Virus record (IMG/VR): IMGVR_UViG_3300029822_000001
Span: 32,001 to 96,000 of that record
From: a virus
Strand: one strand, 5' to 3'
DNA: 64,000 bases
This document shows positions 10,782 through 44,178 of this stretch, in pieces. The translations under genes were made by a program, and so were the position numbers. Each line of letters starts with the position of its first letter. The first letter of the stretch is position 1. The notes below the pieces were generated by a model. It saw nothing but the letters and a program-made list of their open reading frames with translations, made no database searches and was not told the DNA's origin.

Positions 10782-10788
10782 AATTTAA

Positions 10789-10860
10789 TGTTCCAATAGG
10801 GAATCGAACCCTAATCCGTGGCTTAGGGGGCCACTATGCTATCCATTACACCACTGGAAC
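10789..10860 (-). tRNA. tRNA-Arg(CCU), CCA not encoded, C at position 33
   Basis: Acceptor stem GTTCCAG/TTGGAAC, D-loop TAATGGATA, anticodon stem GTGGC/GCCAC with loop CCCCTAA, T-arm TAGGG-TTCGATT-CCCTA. Confidence 0.9.
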
Positions 10861-10887
10861 ATAACAGGGGATGTCTCCCCTTTTTTG

Positions 10888-16153: not shown

Positions 16154-16573
16154 TTATTCCTCCTTATCTCCAAAAAGATGACTTAACTGAGCAAGTACCT
16201 CTTTTTGATGCAAAGTATCCATTTTTGAAAAAGTACTTACAAGTTTGTCAGCTTTTTTATTATTATGCTGTTCCTGTTTATACCGATTATTGTTCTTCGC
16301 CCAGTTCGGGTCTAACATTAGTACGGAGGACATCTTGTTATGAGACATCAACCACATATTCTCAGTGGTACCATACTCATACGGGGGAACTGTACGAAAA
16401 GTATCCTTAGTATTGTCGAAAAAAGTTATTTCTAAACTGTCATCCTGTTCCTTAGGCTCCTTAACAGTTACTGGAGTTTGTACGTAAGTATCCTTTACCC
16501 GCCAGCCCAAGTAAAACTGGTCTTTCTTTTGGTCGTCAAAAACTAAATGATAAGCATCATATACTGTTTCCAT
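16154..16573 (-). CDS. hypothetical protein
   Basis: 139-aa ORF behind promoter cassette C. Confidence 0.75.
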   Translation of the reverse strand: METVYDAYHLVFDDQKKDQFYLGWRVKDTYVQTPVTVKEPKEQDDSLEITFFDNTKDTFRTVPPYEYGTTENMWLMSHNKMSSVLMLDPNWAKNNNRYKQEQHNNKKADKLVSTFSKMDTLHQKEVLAQLSHLFGDKEE

Positions 16574-16584
16574 TAAGTAATTAT

Positions 16585-16634
16585 CTCCTTCCTTGTATGT
16601 AAAAAGGATACCATACTAGGTACCCTTTTGTCAA
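16585..16634 (-). promoter_or_regulatory. palindromic promoter cassette C
   Basis: TTGACA-N18-TATCCT; arms AAAGGGTACC/GGTATCCTTT; TTACATACAAGGAAGGAG. Confidence 0.75.
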
Positions 16635-16705
16635 GTTACTTTTTAGCTAATTTTGCTTACTTGTTACCTTTTTAATCAATGTATGTACCCCTTTCTAGAT
16701 TAAAG

Positions 16706-16867
16706 TTACTTGTTTTCCCATTCTGGATGTCGTTTAGCAATATCTGATAGATACGTCCTGGTATACTTTTCCGGGTCAGTGTACCGCCCTCGATAGCAAT
16801 CAATAATGTACCCCATTAGTAAGTATCCAGAAGTGTCAATAATTACACTAGTAATAAAGCTAACCAT
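16706..16867 (-). CDS. small membrane protein (start corrected to MVSFITS)
   Basis: AAGGAG RBS before ATG at 16867. Confidence 0.6.
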   Translation of the reverse strand: MVSFITSVIIDTSGYLLMGYIIDCYRGRYTDPEKYTRTYLSDIAKRHPEWENK

Positions 16868-16976
16868 TTTTATTCTCCTTCTTCCAATAGTACGTGTTAA
16901 GCAAGCGACGATAGCCAACGTCTTCAATCTGAATTCCCAGATATATAGCTGTAATTAATGCTGCAATAAATACCAT
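16860..16976 (-). CDS. 38-aa hydrophobic peptide not in the ORF track (MVFIAALITAIYLGIQIEDVGYRRLLNTYYWKKENKNG)
   Basis: AGGAGG RBS; coupled to the next gene by an 8-nt overlap. Confidence 0.65.
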   Translation of the reverse strand: MVFIAALITAIYLGIQIEDVGYRRLLNTYYWKKENKNG

Positions 16977-16988
16977 GACGTTTCCTCC

Positions 16989-17237
16989 TTACTTTTTATG
17001 TTTGTACTCATTTGTATTTACCCAAACCTGATACATTTTAGTTTTGTACTTGCTAGGTTGTACAATAATAATCTTTTCTTGATGCTTTAACCTATCTAAA
17101 GTATCTTGATTTACCTTAAGTACCACCTGTAAGTATGGGTCTATCTTACTACTATCCAGAGTAGTTGTCAACCATGTATAGTGATTACTTAAGTTTTCTT
17201 CTGCCTCTTTTAATGTTTGATATTTAGTTGTTAGCAT
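16989..17237 (-). CDS. hypothetical protein
   Basis: 82-aa ORF overlapping the upstream stop. Confidence 0.65.
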   Translation of the reverse strand: MLTTKYQTLKEAEENLSNHYTWLTTTLDSSKIDPYLQVVLKVNQDTLDRLKHQEKIIIVQPSKYKTKMYQVWVNTNEYKHKK

Positions 17238-17841
17238 TTCTTATAACCTTTGCTTCCCATTGATGTCGGTATTTACCTTGAGACTTCCAGCAATTAACAT
17301 CGGTACGACCTTCTAGTTCCCATTCATCCCAAGAACTGTTTTGCAACAATTTACCCCCTCTTTTACGAAAGAGAGGTTCCCCGATACTTTTGTAGTACTG
17401 GTCATCGCTCATTAAAGCGTAATAACGTTCTCCTGTACCCTTTTTACCTGCCTTTCGATATGAATACCCACGATGATGCTTACGTCCCTGAGAACGTCTT
17501 ACAGGGCGTTTAAAAGTAGCATAGCTATGGTACACATAGTCGTGAATAACCTTGTAGTTAGGCAGATACTTTCCAGGACGGTTTGGATACTCTTTGGCAT
17601 CCTCTAATAGCAAGCGGCACATGTCGTCAATTGTATTGTACCAGTTAATACCTGAACTATCCAAGACTAGATTCCATTGAAGACGGTTAATGTCAAAATC
17701 GTTTTGACACTCCTTTAGCTTATCAGCTACCTTAGTAAGGTCAGGATTAAATCTCTCTTGGTAATAATGAACGTTATCATCAATAAAAATAGGAACAGTA
17801 CTATGTGGCTTAAAATACAAGACAGGTTGAATAAGGTTCAT
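17224..17841 (-). CDS. basic hypothetical protein
   Basis: 205 aa, AGGAGGT RBS, Arg/Lys-rich with C-terminal WK...RHQW motif. Confidence 0.75.
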   Translation of the reverse strand: MNLIQPVLYFKPHSTVPIFIDDNVHYYQERFNPDLTKVADKLKECQNDFDINRLQWNLVLDSSGINWYNTIDDMCRLLLEDAKEYPNRPGKYLPNYKVIHDYVYHSYATFKRPVRRSQGRKHHRGYSYRKAGKKGTGERYYALMSDDQYYKSIGEPLFRKRGGKLLQNSSWDEWELEGRTDVNCWKSQGKYRHQWEAKVIRNANN

Positions 17842-17858
17842 GGGCTTACCTCCTATAA

Positions 17859-18308
17859 TTACTCCATATTATCCAAGTACTTAGCCAATTCATCAATGCT
17901 GATTTCAACCTTAAAAAGGTCCTCTATTTTGTAGCCAAGGCCTAGAGATGGACGCTTATTAAAAAAGCCTAAAAGTTGTTGTTTAAGTATAAAGGTATTC
18001 TTAGCAAAAAAGCTATGTCTACTTGGGAATTTCGAGGAAAATATCATCTTAAGGTATTCCGTGTGCTTCAGATAGTTAATTAATAGGTACTTTAGAATAT
18101 GTTTGGATACATGTAAAGTACAATAGCTATTACTTTGGTCTAAGTTAATGAGGTATACCTGATAGTACTCATGTTTGTTGCCGGGAATAATAACTAGACA
18201 TTTTTCCCTCATAACTGTGTGGTAGAAGCCATACCTGTACCCGAGTAATTCATTAACCGCTTGTGATAAGGTGGCCTTTAGTACTCGATTAGCAGTTGCT
18301 TCATTCAT
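17859..18308 (-). CDS. hypothetical protein (start corrected to MNEATAN)
   Basis: AAAGGAG RBS; the ORF extension overlaps promoter cassette D. Confidence 0.7.
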   Translation of the reverse strand: MNEATANRVLKATLSQAVNELLGYRYGFYHTVMREKCLVIIPGNKHEYYQVYLINLDQSNSYCTLHVSKHILKYLLINYLKHTEYLKMIFSSKFPSRHSFFAKNTFILKQQLLGFFNKRPSLGLGYKIEDLFKVEISIDELAKYLDNME

Positions 18309-18317
18309 GCATAACAC

Positions 18318-18368
18318 TCTCCTTTCTTGTATGTAAAAAGGATACCATACTAGGTACCCTTTTGTCAA
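18318..18368 (-). promoter_or_regulatory. palindromic promoter cassette D
   Basis: Core identical to cassette C. Confidence 0.75.
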
Positions 18369-18369
18369 G

Positions 18370-18723
18370 TTACTTTTTATTCATTTTAGCTCTTTTGCTT
18401 TCTAACTCTGCTAATTGTTCATTTAACTCCTCTAGTACTTTAAGAGACTCTTTGTACTTATTTGTACCGTCTACACCTTCAATGTGTACTTCGTGTACTT
18501 TATCAGTACCTTTCTGTGAGCCCGTTTGGTCAACCAAGCACATAGCAATAAAGAAGGTTATTGCAGCAACTCCTAAGTACCCGAGGTACCAATAGGGTCC
18601 CCAATTAGCAAGTACTAAGATATTCCCCCAAGTTAATAATCCAACAATACCAGCAATACACAGGGCATAAAACAAAGATTTGAACAAATTCCATAATACT
18701 TTGAGTACCTTTTTCATTAACAA
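18370..18723 (-). CDS. membrane protein
   Basis: Two TM helices plus a coiled-coil tail. Confidence 0.75.
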   Translation of the reverse strand: MLMKKVLKVLWNLFKSLFYALCIAGIVGLLTWGNILVLANWGPYWYLGYLGVAAITFFIAMCLVDQTGSQKGTDKVHEVHIEGVDGTNKYKESLKVLEELNEQLAELESKRAKMNKK

Positions 18724-19253
18724 TCACCCTCCTTTTTATAGTCAATTAATGGTCCACTACTAATGTCAAAATTATGTGCAATTCTAGCAGCCGCACAGGC
18801 ACTAACTGCTGACAGAGCATCGTCAATAAAAGTATTACAGTTTCCGACGTCCTGTTCACTATCCAGTTCTTTAGCCTTACCTTGCTTATTCTTGTCTAGG
18901 AAGCCAAACGAGGTAACTGCAATGTTACCATAGTCACCCGTTAAACCTATCGCCAAAGTCTCATCAACGGAGAACTGACCGAGGTCTTGTTCTATGATAC
19001 CCTGTAGTGGTTGGTCAAACTTTTGGTTACTAGCCAGTTTATCTAAGTTAATTGCCATAGCTACATGTTGTAGCACATCTCGCTTTAACATTACATGGTC
19101 AACAGCTTCTAAACAGTCGTTAATTGTTAATTCTGGTAAATATTCTTTTTGTAAACTATAGGTTACTTCAGCTAGGTCACTAAAACTAACACCTCTATCT
19201 AATAACTCGTTTAGTACATAGTTAAATAACTCTTCATCGGGATACGTTTTCAT
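18717..19253 (-). CDS. phosphatidylglycerophosphatase A (PgpA/YpjQ)-like protein
   Basis: VDETLA, YGNIAVTSFGFLDKNK, NTFIDD..SA...AAARIAH motifs typical of Firmicute PgpA-like proteins. Confidence 0.8.
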   Translation of the reverse strand: MKTYPDEELFNYVLNELLDRGVSFSDLAEVTYSLQKEYLPELTINDCLEAVDHVMLKRDVLQHVAMAINLDKLASNQKFDQPLQGIIEQDLGQFSVDETLAIGLTGDYGNIAVTSFGFLDKNKQGKAKELDSEQDVGNCNTFIDDALSAVSACAAARIAHNFDISSGPLIDYKKEGDC

Positions 19254-19254
19254 A

Positions 19255-20526
19255 TTAATCTTCCTTTTCATTGAAGTAATAGGTAGATACCCATGGATGG
19301 TTACTGCCCTTACTTAAAATAATTGCTGACTGTCCTGCTTCAGCGTTTCCTAATTCATTTCGAGTAGCATACTGGTCAGTACCCTTGAGACTTGCAGCAA
19401 CAACCACTGTAGCATGGCCTTCTTCTTGCCAGGTACTAAAGGTATGATAGTGACCGGCAATTATTAAATCTGGTTGTACCTCATGTCCCAACCGTGATAC
19501 ATTATCATTTTTCTTACGGTTAAGAGCTTCCCCATGTGTTAATAGAACATGATGACCTAATACATCAAATTCTGAACGGTAGATGTTCTGACTGTTATCT
19601 AGTACTTCCACATTTTTAAGCTGACCTGTTTCCTGCATTAACTTAATGGTGGATAACACAGTATAAGCAACGGAATCATTGAACATTTCTTTGGACTTGT
19701 CTCCAGAGTACCGGTCATGGTTACCCGCAATGATAGAGAAAACTACATGAAACTCGGATTGCATAAGTTGCAATTGCTTAACCACTAGTCCTGTAGCCTT
19801 AGCTACCTGAGCTGCTAAAGGAAATTCACAATTCATTGAGCTAGAATAGTGTAAGTAACTTTGTTCAACTAGGTCTCCAATGTTAACTTCATAGATAGTA
19901 GATAGTCCCATAGACTTGGCAACACTCATAGCATACCGGGTATGTTCCATCAAACGTTGTTGAGCAATTTCCCAATTATATTGATTATTAGGTAAATCCA
20001 CTAAGGCACCAATGTGCATATCGCTGGTAACATCAATGTAAGCTAGTTTTTCCTCCTTAGGCGCTACATAAGGTACAGTCTCCTTAGGTAAGTTACTAAT
20101 GGTACCCTTTAATGCCTCAGACAGCCCGTTCATTAGTGAGGTCATCATGGCCCCTGTCCGAATATCCTTCTTAAGTTCTCGCTGGTACTGACTTACTTCT
20201 AACTGATGTACCGCAGAAGGACTAATTTTAGTAACTACCTTTTGGTCCCAATCTTTTTTAGTCTTGGTACCCATCTTGTTAATATCTTTCTTTAACACAT
20301 CATACAAGGATACTTCGCCATCTCTAACTTGAGTGTATGCTTCTTTAAGCTCTGGTGTTGTATCCAATTCTTGTACCAATTCAATCAATTCTTGCTTGTT
20401 AGTTTTTTCTGACTTGCCTTTTCCTAATTGAGTTAAGTAATCATTTACCCGAGCAACCGGTACCCGGTAACCATATGTCTTATAAAGCTCTCCCAAAATG
20501 TAAGCTAGTTCTATTTTTCTATCCAC
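19255..20526 (-). CDS. calcineurin-like metallophosphoesterase
   Basis: SDMHIG, GDLVE, GNHDR, THG and GHYH motifs. Confidence 0.85.
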   Translation of the reverse strand: MDRKIELAYILGELYKTYGYRVPVARVNDYLTQLGKGKSEKTNKQELIELVQELDTTPELKEAYTQVRDGEVSLYDVLKKDINKMGTKTKKDWDQKVVTKISPSAVHQLEVSQYQRELKKDIRTGAMMTSLMNGLSEALKGTISNLPKETVPYVAPKEEKLAYIDVTSDMHIGALVDLPNNQYNWEIAQQRLMEHTRYAMSVAKSMGLSTIYEVNIGDLVEQSYLHYSSSMNCEFPLAAQVAKATGLVVKQLQLMQSEFHVVFSIIAGNHDRYSGDKSKEMFNDSVAYTVLSTIKLMQETGQLKNVEVLDNSQNIYRSEFDVLGHHVLLTHGEALNRKKNDNVSRLGHEVQPDLIIAGHYHTFSTWQEEGHATVVVAASLKGTDQYATRNELGNAEAGQSAIILSKGSNHPWVSTYYFNEKED

Positions 20527-21376: not shown

Positions 21377-21440
21377 AAATAAAACACCTCCAAGGAATAG
21401 TATACCCTAGGGGTGTTAGTTTGTCAACTTTTGCTAATTA

Positions 21441-21626
21441 TTAAGCAGTTGCTGTTGTGAAATCTGGAATTGTTACTTTAGCATTACTCCCTGCGTAAGC
21501 TGCTTGATAGCCACTGTACGTAGTACCAGCAGTTAGACCAGTTAAAACTACAGGAGATACCTGTGCATCTGCTACCTTGTTACCCTGATTATCATATACG
21601 TCAAAATTTTGTACTGTATCTGCCAT
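21441..21626 (-). CDS. small virion decoration protein, N-terminally truncated FN3 domain
   Basis: Paralog of residues 1-57 of the 153-aa protein; LTGLTAGTTY FN3 motif. Confidence 0.8.
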   Translation of the reverse strand: MADTVQNFDVYDNQGNKVADAQVSPVVLTGLTAGTTYSGYQAAYAGSNAKVTIPDFTTATA

Positions 21627-21704
21627 TATTTTGTTCTCCTTTATTAATTAGTTTAATGGAATTGTTGCTGTTGTTGCTGTGGTAGTTACATTACCTACAG
21701 ATGG

Positions 21705-22166
21705 TTATGCAGGCGTAGCTGCTACTGGAGTACCAGTAACAGAACTTGACTTGTCGGATTCACCAGCGCCGTTAATAGCGGTGGCTTGGAAAGTATATTC
21801 CGTCCCATCAGTCAGCCCTGTGATAGTACCTGTTAAAGAATTCTCCAAGTCCATAGTTAAAGGTGTTGTACCATCTGTGTAATAAACTTTATAGTCAGTA
21901 ACGGCACTTCCTGCATTAGCTCCTGCAGTTAGGGTAACATCTACTTGTCCATCCCCAGGAGTAACTACTAAAGTAGGAGCCCCAGGAACTACATCTAGGG
22001 TTGTGAAATCAGGAAGTGCTGTCTTGTTTTCCTGACCAGCATAAGTTGCTTGATAACCCTTATACGTAGTATTAGGATTTAACCCTGTAATACTAACAGG
22101 AGATGCTTGCGCAGCTACTACCTTAGTATTATTTTCATCATAAATGTCAAAAGTTACATCTGCCAT
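21705..22166 (-). CDS. virion decoration protein: truncated FN3 plus complete FN3 domain
   Basis: ITGLNPNTTY, and PGAPTL...DYKVYY...ITGLTDGTEYTFQATAINGAGES. Confidence 0.85.
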   Translation of the reverse strand: MADVTFDIYDENNTKVVAAQASPVSITGLNPNTTYKGYQATYAGQENKTALPDFTTLDVVPGAPTLVVTPGDGQVDVTLTAGANAGSAVTDYKVYYTDGTTPLTMDLENSLTGTITGLTDGTEYTFQATAINGAGESDKSSSVTGTPVAATPA

Positions 22167-22185
22167 TGATTAAAAACATCCTTTC

Positions 22186-22686
22186 TTATTCTAATGGGAT
22201 TGTTGCTGTTGTTGCCGTTGTTGTTACAGTACCTACTGTAGGGGCCTTAGGAGTACTTGTTGAAGAAACTACTAAGTCAGCCAATTCCTGTGCACTTAAC
22301 AGGTTGTAATCATAGTTAACTGGGGAAATACTCCCTAGGTACAAGGAAATTGCTTGTAATAAAGCTACTGCAACGTTTCCATAATACTTATCAGTTACTA
22401 CTGAACCTAATTCATATGAATAGTTAGGGTCGTTCTTAAGAACATACTTAATAGTTTTAGCAGTAGTATCCCAGGAAATAACCTTTTCCCCTGCTGTAGT
22501 ATATTTACCTGTTTGTACATCTTTTGGAGACAGAGCACGTACAAAATTGTTTGCATCAATTGCAAACAAAATTGGACCTGCACCTGCGTCATCATAAACA
22601 TCCGCTGAAGATAAAGGTTCCTTAACTAAAATATAGTTACCTGTTAAATCTGCTAATGTTGCTGATTTTAAGTCAATTTTTTCCAT
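22186..22686 (-). CDS. putative structural protein ending in an FN3 A/B-strand-like peptide
   Basis: 166 aa; syntenic position after the sigma factor in Twort-like phages; ends PKAPTVGTVTTTATTATIPLE. Confidence 0.7.
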   Translation of the reverse strand: MEKIDLKSATLADLTGNYILVKEPLSSADVYDDAGAGPILFAIDANNFVRALSPKDVQTGKYTTAGEKVISWDTTAKTIKYVLKNDPNYSYELGSVVTDKYYGNVAVALLQAISLYLGSISPVNYDYNLLSAQELADLVVSSTSTPKAPTVGTVTTTATTATIPLE

Positions 22687-31871: not shown

Positions 31872-32120
31872 GTGAACTACTCGGTCATGAAGGACCAAGC
31901 TTCTGGGAACACTGCTTACTTACACAGTAGTGTCTAGCACTCCATGCAGAGGTTACAGCTATTTACCACGGCTCGTTCCGAACCTAGTTAGTCAATTATT
32001 TATTAGCTTGGTTTTCGCTAACAACTATAGTATATCACATACTATTTATTTGTCAAGATTATACCTTATCTCAATGCATCTCGTCACTAAAGTAACAAGC
32101 TTTCTCAATTGGCACTGATT
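31872..32120 (-). mobile_element. 249-bp non-autonomous IS200/IS605-type mini-element (left end, promoter, omegaRNA scaffold, right end; no ORF)
   Basis: Two related subterminal hairpins (32080-32099 and 31880-31899), right end ...GAGTAGTTCAC with GAAG guide, TTAT flanking the left end, internal TTGACA/TG-TATACT promoter. Confidence 0.75.
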
Positions 32121-42311: not shown

Positions 42312-44178
42312 CCTTTTTTTCTAGTACTAAGGACTTTTCAAATAGTCCTTTAAGTTCTTCGCTATGAGAAACAACAAAAATTGTTCCTACTTTTTTTACC
42401 CGCTTATTAAGCAACGACATAACGGCTTCACAACCTTCTTCATCTAAGTTTTCAAACACTTCATCGTAAAAAAGTACATTAACATATGTTGACTTACTTA
42501 GCACATAGTCTTGCAAAGCTAAAGAGATAGCTAAATTAATCCGTTTCTTTTCACCAGAACTATTCAAGTCATACTTTCCACCACCAATAGTATTATCAAC
42601 ATTAACTGTCATTGTATCGGATACGGTACCCTTTTTAGTAGTCGTCGTTGTACTAATGTTTGCATTTACAGTACCATTAGATAGCACTGATAAATAATCT
42701 GCAATGTGTTCATTTAAGAAAGGTACAATCAAGTCCATAACATGACTTTTAACTCCTTTGTTACTAAATACATCACTTACTTCCTTTAATACCTGATACT
42801 GACTTTTAACCTTAAGATACTCCTTATTAACGGTAGCCAGTTCCTCTTTAGCTTGTTTAATACTAGCTACTATCTCTCTGTCATCAAGATACGTACTGTA
42901 AGATTCAATTGTACCTTGCAGGTTATCCCGTCTCCGAATTAATTCCTTATGCTTATTTAAATCAGAAGTCAATTCATCAATCTTGTCAGTTACCTCTTGT
43001 ACCTTTTTGAGTACTTCTTGATTTTTACTTTGAAGTTCTTGGTTATGCTGCTTGGCTTCCTCCAAAGACTTCTTAGCTGGAAGATACTTTTCTTTTATCT
43101 GTCCAAGTTCCTGCTTAGCTTGATTAATTAAATCTAATTCCTGTTGTCCCTGTTGCTTAAGATGTTCTAATTCAACCTTCTTATGTTTCTCGTCTAGTAC
43201 CTGTCCACATAAGGAACATATCCCGTGTTTCTCGTTTATAATCTGCTGATAAGTATTTAGTAATTCTTTGTACTTTGAAATGTACGAATTTAACATACTC
43301 TTAGTACTCATAGCATTACTCTTATAGTCATTAACTTGGGTATCCATTAGATAAGTATCTACTAGAGATACCTTGGTATGAGATAGTGTATTACGAGTGT
43401 TTACTAAGTCTTGTATTACACTCTCATAGTTACCGTAGTCATGTTCTTTACTATCTGCTTCTATTTGCTTATTAAGGGACTCTTTAAGTGCCTTCGCTTC
43501 ATCAGCCTTAGCTTTGTTCTGTTTATTTTTCTCCCGGGTACGAGCTAAGTTTCCTGTTTGTACCTCAATAGTAGTCTCCAAAGGTGATTGCTGAAGCTTA
43601 ATATCTGATAACTTCTTTTCTAGCTCTTGTATCTTATCCTTAGCAATATCATGAGCTTGCTGGTATACAGAAATATTAGTAATATCCTCTAGTAACTCCT
43701 TACGTTCCTTATCAGTTGCACTAGAGAAACGATTAACAGCTTGACCCCCAAAGAAAATTGAGTTCATATAAGATTGAAAACTAATCCCTACAATACTCTC
43801 AATCAGAGTGTCATTATCCTTATTAGTAGGCTTACTAATTTCTTCTCCATCTACATAAACAAGTACTTTATTTTTGTACTTTTTATCCTTACGATACCGT
43901 GCAACCTTATAGCTATGACCTTCCTTGTCAAAAGTTAAGATAACACTGGTATCCTTACCTACTTTGTTATTAACAACATCGTCAGAAGAGTGGCCTTCTG
44001 CATTTTTACCATATAAGGCATAAGCAATAGCACCTAAAAAACTACTTTTTCCTGCACCATTGTTACCACCTGTATCTAAATTTTTACCAACGACCAGTAC
44101 AACGCCTTGGTTACTTAGGTTATACTCAATATGTCCAATACTTTGATAGTTGTTTATCTCCAGCGTCTTAAAATCCAA
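42289..44178 (-). CDS. SbcC/Rad50-like recombination ATPase
   Basis: NGAGKS, coiled coil with CSLC zinc hook, SSGEKKR signature, DEVFE. Confidence 0.92.
   Translation of the reverse strand: MDFKTLEINNYQSIGHIEYNLSNQGVVLVVGKNLDTGGNNGAGKSSFLGAIAYALYGKNAEGHSSDDVVNNKVGKDTSVILTFDKEGHSYKVARYRKDKKYKNKVLVYVDGEEISKPTNKDNDTLIESIVGISFQSYMNSIFFGGQAVNRFSSATDKERKELLEDITNISVYQQAHDIAKDKIQELEKKLSDIKLQQSPLETTIEVQTGNLARTREKNKQNKAKADEAKALKESLNKQIEADSKEHDYGNYESVIQDLVNTRNTLSHTKVSLVDTYLMDTQVNDYKSNAMSTKSMLNSYISKYKELLNTYQQIINEKHGICSLCGQVLDEKHKKVELEHLKQQGQQELDLINQAKQELGQIKEKYLPAKKSLEEAKQHNQELQSKNQEVLKKVQEVTDKIDELTSDLNKHKELIRRRDNLQGTIESYSTYLDDREIVASIKQAKEELATVNKEYLKVKSQYQVLKEVSDVFSNKGVKSHVMDLIVPFLNEHIADYLSVLSNGTVNANISTTTTTKKGTVSDTMTVNVDNTIGGGKYDLNSSGEKKRINLAISLALQDYVLSKSTYVNVLFYDEVFENLDEEGCEAVMSLLNKRVKKVGTIFVVSHSEELKGLFEKSLVLEKKDGITSVR

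Follow-up and report, generated by a model that had tools for sequence, protein, structure and literature searches.

Indications of an FN3-like domain split between virion proteins in a Lactobacillus myophage and its relatives

We analyzed a window of 64,000 nucleotides (nt), the whole stretch from position 32,001 to 96,000 of the IMG/VR virus record IMGVR_UViG_3300029822_000001, with a focus on three genes that lie head to tail on its minus strand according to both the list of open reading frames (ORFs) and the letters themselves. These genes, here named A, B, and C, encode proteins of 166, 153, and 61 amino acids (aa), respectively. We favor, with a probability of about 0.63, the reading that the three products are virion proteins joined by a split FN3-like domain and that the TAA stop codon of gene B is a recent nonsense change or perhaps an error of assembly. 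The sequence surrounding the three genes (3.1 kb) is 91.2% identical to Lactobacillus phage 3-521 (Herelleviridae, genus Watanabevirus, host L. brevis), and the window is that of a Lactobacillus (Levilactobacillus brevis-type) Herelleviridae myophage closely related to 3-521.

A duplicated cassette in genes A, B, and C

The cassette consists of a peptide of ~20 aa that would provide strands A/B of an FN3-like domain (the donor), a stop codon, a ribosome-binding site (RBS), and a gene opening with what would be strands C-G (the acceptor); it is present twice (Table 1). The original prediction, made from the letters and their translations, had described a peptide at the end of gene A and a near copy in frame behind the TAA of gene B, each followed after ~20 nt by a gene with its own RBS and a half-FN3 start. 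This observation was confirmed to the letter. Both peptides were read in the sequence, gene B starts 19 nt after the stop of gene A, and gene C starts 21 nt after donor 2. The duplication is visible at the DNA level, with an identity of 86% over 51 nt between the donor copies and of 71% over 120 nt between the acceptor copies, and the copies lie 538-546 nt apart. The two donors share 15 of 18 residues and differ at 10 of 54 bases, seven of which are third codon positions, while genes B and C both open with MAD..F D(I/V)YD. Against the acceptor hidden Markov model (HMM), acceptor 1 scored 100.3 bits (E 9.5e-30), aligning with 21 N-terminal acceptors, and gene C scored 104.5 bits; the latter also matches phrog_14018 (E 9.8e-14). 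Gene B ends in ...GTPVAATPA-TAA, and the counterpart of its RBS in 3-521 is AGGAGG.

Gene A matches phrog_21586, which PHROG labels as of unknown function (E 1.3e-24), and donor 1 at its end is kept in all four close homologues (P0002-P0005) as well as in 3-521. A Pfam scan of A gave no meaningful match, and an ESM Atlas search with its residues 1-140 reached a best score of 0.84, below the level of a lead.

The reading frames at the two junctions required a correction of the original prediction. The step from B to C is in frame, but the step from A to B is a +1 frame change. In 3-521 the frames are reversed, A to B being in frame with a second stop between them and B to C being +1.

Distribution, fold, and completion of the split domain

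A related-locus search of viral contigs with B alone returned no relative, and relatives were obtained with a small alignment (A2). We compared 29 acceptor genes from the window, phage records, IMG/VR contigs, and five Lactobacillaceae genomes (loci L001-L016, L018, L019, L021, L022, and L025-L029; the duplicates L017 and L020 were excluded). Upstream of 24 of these genes a donor-like peptide ends at a distance of 15-70 nt. Five of the 24 donors are fused to the upstream ORF, one, donor 2 of the window, lies behind an in-frame stop, and the other 18 occupy the +1 frame of the upstream ORF. As upstream ORF, Tybeckvirinae siphophages (Lenus, SA-C12, P1, ATCC 8014-B2, Maenad, and L016) and JNU_P2-like phages and prophages have the major capsid gene, and Harbinvirus myophages have gene A. 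The split gene architecture is conserved among related Lactobacillaceae phages and prophages.

The same comparison bears on whether donor and acceptor could form an ordinary FN3 domain on a single polypeptide, the ribosome bypassing stop and RBS spacer or re-initiating without release. The spacers are indeed short (15-25 nt) in myophages and JNU_P2-like phages, and donor 2 and gene C of the window share a frame. However, the junction frames are swapped between the window and 3-521, so that there is no conserved fusion, and each acceptor gene checked (window, 3-521, Lenus, and Iacchus) has its own RBS and start codon. The Tybeckvirinae spacers, moreover, measure 58-70 nt and contain a G+C-rich hairpin. 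We consider such a fusion in cis hardly credible.

In a few relatives, other sequence follows the acceptor. Harbinvirus (L003:2983-3375), LpeD (L009:1501-1905), and LP65 (L011:2054-2380) have long Thr-rich repeats (TTTTTSTTTVKP..., TETQTQTQ...) and no FN3 domain at this position, and one record names the product "glycoprotein". At another place in its genome, LP65 additionally carries a second small acceptor-like gene, orf93 (L010:1492-1734), which follows orf94 and for which no upstream donor was seen.

At the level of fold, residues 72-145 of B match Pfam PF00041 (45.9 bits against a cut-off of 25, E 6.6e-12), and no Pfam family exceeded its threshold for the first 57 residues of B or for all of C. 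With C as the query, phmmer found 80 matches among 1.84 billion representatives. In 21 of them the match begins at residue 1-4 of proteins of 64-358 aa, corresponding to an acceptor without strands A/B, and six of these proteins (P0013, P0016, P0025, P0027, P0028, and P0029) end in a donor-like peptide that comes after FN3 and/or Big_2 domains. A further 58 matches are internal to proteins of 289-6187 aa and mostly repeated, and in multi-repeat proteins they lie inside whole repeats. In the remaining match, P0054 (82 aa), it starts at residue 21 and is preceded by a donor-like stretch, and the acceptor part is 48% identical to C; by its sequence, this protein is an unsplit version in which donor and acceptor are contiguous.

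A structure prediction agrees with this picture. AlphaFold2 (AF2) was given the natural in-frame series of donor 2, X in place of the stop, the 8-residue spacer, and C, with an alignment of 21 rows, and returned a model with a mean predicted local distance difference test score (pLDDT) of 89.7 and a predicted template modeling score of 0.78. The donor blocks, modeled as strands A/B, had values of 94 and 91, and the spacer 54. In VIA-align, the best 50 matches of the model were all FN3 domains (Z 8.1-9.5, root-mean-square deviation 2.1-3.3 Å), with 71-84 of 87 residues aligned and a model range from residue 1 to 85-87. A Foldseek search of the PDB with the model gave no match at E <=0.001; the best had 4e-3, and the top rows were nearly all FN3. 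Donor and acceptor together are therefore predicted to adopt an FN3-topology fold. These data support the view that B and C open with 57-60 residues of an FN3-like domain without strands A/B and that the upstream peptides are the missing strands.

Other searches contributed less. A PDB sequence search with the clean split-domain profile A8 found no usable relative (best E 0.02), and AF2 without an alignment on B-X-donor-X-C was uninformative (pLDDT 43.7). The comparison of profile A6 with the intact FN3 domain of B was dropped as evidence, since it re-found only the B-like rows of A6 itself. As a separate observation, this intact domain (B residues 57-149, window 21717-21995) is 53-57% identical to a domain of T5-like phages in genes named "tail protein/tail fiber" of Salmonella and Escherichia phages, an identity that is unusually high across such distant hosts.

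Binding in trans was addressed by a complex prediction, as the original prediction had proposed. ESMFold2 was run with A (7-row alignment) and residues 1-62 of B (23-row alignment) and gave a result classed as "weak support", with an ipSAE of 0.52 (runs of 0.52, 0.51, and 0.53) compared to 0.00 for the best of three controls. The mark for support was passed by 58 of 80 solved complexes and by 2 of 110 mismatched pairs, and passing scores of 0.60 or less came from 7 of those 80 solved complexes and from both passing mismatches. Contact agreement between runs was at least 80%, and the pLDDT of the partner was 79-80, compared to 62 with an unrelated protein in place of A.

That A and C are part of the particle is indicated by phage 3-521, in which UCC3521_0106, _0107, and _0108 (GenBank locus tags) are the homologues of A, B, and C. 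Table 4 of PMC6563214, which reports mass spectrometry of purified 3-521 virions, lists ORF106 ("structural protein") with 7 peptides and 62% coverage and ORF108 ("tail protein") with 1 peptide and 18% coverage; the ORF numbering of that paper agrees with the GenBank tags for ORFs 57-79. The homologue of A in LP65 is annotated as "structural protein 2-D,MS", a structural protein identified by 2-D gel and MS. Thus, the homologues of A and C are virion proteins in the relative 3-521.

Several results weigh against the completion of an FN3 domain between chains. The split domain falls short of Pfam fn3 at the sequence level: the series of donor 2, X, spacer, and C had no fn3 match in Pfam (best DUF5643, E 0.024, and Big_8, E 0.045), and even the unsplit P0054 scored 13.1 bits against a cut-off of 25. 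The alignment of the peptides with strands A/B of the intact FN3 domain of B, as originally described, was reproduced in its register when profile A8 was compared with that domain, but at a probability of 1.8% it is not significant. The AF2 model is a single chain and speaks for compatibility with the FN3 fold, not for assembly in trans, and the ESMFold2 score lies in the weak band, with no interface returned. Five of the 29 acceptor genes, namely those of LpeD, LP65 (two), and the first acceptors of L025 and L026, have no recognizable upstream donor, and therefore some acceptors may fold or dock in another way. Finally, ORF107, the homologue of B, is absent from the virion table of PMC6563214, which suggests that A-C, and not a chain from A through B to C, may be the common or main form.

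These points touch on the possibility that no complementation takes place at all, the 57-residue modules being autonomous small beta domains and the Thr/Ala-rich peptides linkers or relics of tandem duplication. The donor-less acceptors and the weak complex score would fit this, as would the fast change of Harbinvirus donors at the protein level (14 synonymous and 43 non-synonymous codon differences). On the other hand, donors stand beside acceptors after three unrelated upstream genes, and the 18 tabulated +1 donors and the B donor of L029 are open in a single frame. Differences at codon positions 1/2/3 are biased towards the third position in Tybeckvirinae (39/49/132) and JNU_P2-like phages (11/4/22). 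Both parts occur contiguously in P0054, and in the AF2 model the donor forms strands A/B at pLDDT values above 90. We thus regard autonomous modules as improbable and completion in trans, which was the core of the original prediction, as the best reading on the basis of the pairing in relatives, the unsplit homologue, the AF2 model, and the complex prediction.

In the mechanism we propose, a donor of ~18-21 residues (strands A/B) at the C-terminus of one polypeptide would meet an acceptor of ~57 residues (strands C-G) that forms the N-terminus of the next polypeptide, which is translated separately. The acceptor alone would be unable to close its hydrophobic core and would fold round the donor hairpin of the other chain, giving a tight non-covalent joint. 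A, with an N-terminal virion-binding domain and a donor, would be the anchor or initiator; B, with an acceptor, an intact FN3 domain, and a donor, the extender; and C, with an acceptor only, the cap. The assembled proteins would present FN3 domains on the particle. In the window genome, the change from GAA to TAA would sever the donor from B, which could then no longer extend the chain, so that B and C would compete for the single donor of A.

The stop codon of gene B and +1-frame donors in relatives

The B homologue of 3-521 (169 aa) reads without a stop into ...PKPTVGSVTTTATTATIPLN. We mapped contigs from four other sequencing runs (four studies) on 21441-22300 and found that base 21707 (plus strand), which is A in the window, is C in all six covering contigs (one from X2, two each from X4 and X5, and one from X9). 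The codon in the relatives is GAA, except that X2 reads GTA through a further change at 21706. The TAA of gene B is hence a private one-base change from GAA. Behind it, donor 2 is intact, with 4 of its 54 bases deviating from the 3-521 donor, which fits a recent loss. Alignment with related phages, one of the checks first suggested, therefore showed conservation of the extension and none of the TAA.

According to the original prediction, read-through of this stop would set the share of B that carries donor 2 and recruits C. In favor of such a device, the extension is in frame, intact, and closed by its own stop, C is intact as well, and relatives attach donors conditionally through a +1 frame change. 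Against it, UAA is generally the least leaky bacterial stop codon, and the position is a sense codon in 3-521 and in the six contigs from all four other runs. No suppressor tRNA is present among the five tRNAs of the 122,967-base genome (Arg-tct, Gly-tcc, Ile-tat, Ser-gct, and Arg-cct), and no recognizable read-through signal was seen at the TAA, context rules not having been applied. A programmed or regulatory read-through device is accordingly not supported and very unlikely. Low-level read-through of the TAA may occur and would count against a B that has lost its donor. The hidden peptide appears as a freshly truncated gene end.

An alternative named in the original prediction, a recent nonsense change, fits best. 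It is also conceivable that the TAA arose in sequencing or assembly, or that it is a minority variant, and that the real phage has a B like that of 3-521, reading into the donor. All examined relatives read G at the first base of the codon, and the genome is a single assembled contig. Yet the site is not a homopolymer, and the flanking codons also differ from those of the relatives, as expected for a distinct strain and not for a chimera. An error is unlikely, though it deserves consideration beside the nonsense change.

Some of the mapped contigs bear on gene order. One X5 contig joins 21668 to 22211, that is, donor 2 to donor 1, deleting B, and in X4 and in X5 one contig each has a B-like body behind a C-like 5' end (22100/21576). 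As leads from single contigs, they suggest that the number of extender modules varies among relatives via recombination between the repeats.

The idea that recoding sets the fraction of donor-bearing proteins has a counterpart in other phages, where it takes the form of a +1 frame change, not of read-through. All 19 out-of-frame donors are in the +1 frame and none is in the -1 frame; for the 18 tabulated donors both other frames are closed, and the L029 B donor is likewise open in +1 only. Pairwise differences at codon positions 1/2/3 show a clear third-position bias in Tybeckvirinae, whereas the Harbinvirus counts (30/14/24) show none, which argues against strong constraint in that genus. Taken together, the uniform +1 frame, the single open frame, and the bias in Tybeckvirinae imply programmed +1 recoding, and the ends of the capsid genes look like recoding sites as judged from their sequences. 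In the relatives, but not in the window, structural genes carry 3'-terminal extensions in a second frame that are under purifying selection, with Harbinvirus lacking the bias.

The 0-frame gene ends share G[CT]G AG[TC] AAN, sometimes with GGC, before the stop. Where it is present, the +1-frame TGA within "G TGA G" places the shift at or after the AGY codon. Programmed +1 shifts are known in Gram-positive phage capsid genes, for example that of PSA, and the motif resembles the +1 shift site of Ty3, GCG_AGU_U, both as described in PMC5009743. In the JNU_P2-like cassette, these letters at the same time specify the Ala-Ser-Lys with which the donor linker begins, so that their conservation may reflect coding or duplication; the site is therefore a lead only. 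Three candidates for the exact site, a Ty3-like GYG_AGY_A, slippage on the final sense codon, and a short hop onto a codon that is repeated, were rejected, as none fits all lineages.

Some details of these loci may be recorded here. The +1 donor ORFs after capsid genes comprise ~20 codons, follow GCG AGT AAN before the capsid stop, and are unannotated in every record. Harbinvirus homologues of A have ...(V/A)S(N/K)(G) directly before the stop, with the donor in the +1 frame; Iacchus and Semele have a +1 linker of ~40 codons ahead of the donor, and 11 further A homologues (P0086-P0096) share the C-terminal ending. In L029 (1930-2020), a Lactiplantibacillus prophage-like locus, a B-like donor follows in the +1 frame after GCG AGT AGT CCC AAA GCT TGA, which would mean a further recoding site within a single cassette or else an indel of 1 nt. 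The tRNA genes of the window genome lie at positions 16163-20312 and 42788-42861 of its contig (G000:C1), the latter corresponding to window 10788-10861, and Ser-gct reads AGY codons such as those at the candidate shift sites of related phages.

In other Lactobacillaceae phages, the donor would thus be conditional, lying in the +1 frame beyond the stop codon of either the capsid gene or gene A, and recoding would set the level of decoration. We tentatively extend this, at somewhat less than even odds, to a portable split-FN3 docking cassette in Lactobacillaceae phages that would build non-covalent chains of initiator, extender, and cap, displaying Ig-like domains on the virion, the donor of siphophages and Harbinvirus being placed on a fraction of the capsid or A copies through conserved +1 recoding within the final codons of the upstream gene.

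Table 1 Features of the A-B-C locus and +1-frame donors of related loci. Positions refer to the window unless a locus is named.
Feature	Position	Strand	Description
Gene A	22186..22686	-	ends ...STPKAPTVGTVTTTATTATIPLE-TAA
Gene A domains			N-terminal domain at about residues 1-140 (fold unassigned), then linker and C-terminal donor
Donor 1	22189..22251	-	last 21 codons of A (PKAPTVGTVTTTATTATIPLE); candidate strands A/B of the split FN3-like domain
RBS of gene B	22179..22185	-	GAAAGGA
Gene B	21705..22166	-	starts MADVTFDIYDENNTK
Acceptor 1	21996..22166	-	B residues 1-57; candidate strands C-G of the split domain
Intact FN3 of B	21732..21953	-	residues 72-145 by Pfam PF00041
TAA stop of B	21705..21707	-	private nonsense codon
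Donor 2	21648..21704	-	18 codons (PSVGNVTTTATTATIPLN) and TAA; in frame past the TAA of B, cut off from B
RBS of gene C	21636..21641	-	AAGGAG
Gene C	21441..21626	-	starts MADTVQNFDVYDNQGNK; acceptor half-domain only
Sigma-70-like promoter	21399..21427	-	TTGACA, 17 nt spacer, TATACT; 11/12 matches; consensus match only
+1 donor ORFs after capsid genes	L002:2855-2930, L006:1346-1421, L007:1347-1422, L008:1349-1424, L016:1840-1915
+1 donor ORFs after capsid genes	L004:2906-2987, L018:1956-2037, L019:2407-2488, L027-L029 about 1396-1488
+1-frame donors after Harbinvirus gene A	L003:2829-2967, L013, L012:1089-1167, L014, L021:2392-2470, L022

Neighboring genes, related systems, and significance

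The sigma-70-like promoter sits directly after C, ahead of the next gene, and thereby marks the end of the A-B-C unit. Neighboring genes serve replication and late transcription and encode a UvsX-like recombinase, a sigma factor of RNA polymerase, and an exonuclease of the metallophosphoesterase type. Neither a chaperone nor an usher is apparent among them, although no search was aimed at one. The exonuclease gene (window 19255-20526) encodes a calcineurin-like metallophosphoesterase/exonuclease of 423 aa (PHROG 284, E 2.3e-71), whose homologue in 3-521 is labeled "DNA polymerase", apparently a mislabel. Homologues of B and C are often named "major tail protein", a name derived from PHROG 341 and 14018.

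The proposed arrangement has parallels in several known systems. Chaperone-usher pili are built by donor-strand complementation and exchange, their pilins lacking strand G, which is filled by an N-terminal extension. Here, too, an incomplete Ig-like fold would be finished by a strand of the next subunit, with first, repeating, and terminating subunits held together non-covalently. In contrast to these pili, two strands (A/B) are missing and would be supplied by a C-terminal tail; with no chaperone or usher evident, assembly would be cytoplasmic, on the virion, and there is no sequence relationship. SpyTag/SpyCatcher, engineered from a CnaB domain and locked by an isopeptide bond, likewise rebuilds a small beta-sandwich from a short strand peptide and the rest of the fold as a docking device, whereas the split FN3 would be natural and FN3-like, with no isopeptide chemistry indicated. 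T4 Hoc and T5 pb10 are Ig-like capsid decoration proteins with a dedicated capsid-binding domain. They resemble the proteins described here in their non-essential-looking display of Ig-like or FN3 domains on the virion surface, but share no domain with the protein beneath.

The addition of Ig-like and FN3 domains to phage structural proteins by programmed frameshifting was described by Fraser et al. 2006, as summarized in PMC5009743, where Listeria phage PSA cps (+1) and Lactobacillus phage A2 (-1) are given as examples. As in these cases, the +1-frame donors would serve accessory display on capsid or tail through a C-terminal extension in a second frame near the stop, on a fraction of the copies only. 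Frameshifting appends a whole domain in cis, however, while the tail considered here, of ~20 residues, would be the first two strands, and gene A of the window needs no recoding and none is supported for gene B. SPP1 gp17.1* is a further case of a domain added by recoding.

Ig-like decoration, extensions made by frameshifting, and donor-strand complementation are each already known, but no description was found of a natural FN3-like domain whose parts lie on two virion proteins. Full-text literature, supplements not covered, yielded no split Ig-like or FN3 domain shared between phage proteins, no +1 recoding in these capsid genes, and none supplying a donor half.

If completion in trans is true, it would explain genes that are mislabeled as "major tail protein" or "hypothetical", and it would represent a new route for attaching Ig-like domains in phages, beside fusion in cis and frameshift extension. 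The split domain would be a natural connector on virus particles, with a 20-residue tag on the capsid or anchor protein and the rest of the fold on the decorator, and might serve phage display in lactic acid bacteria as a small non-covalent tag-and-catcher pair. With the +1-frame donors, the capsid genes of dairy and fermentation phages would gain an unannotated family of recoding sites.

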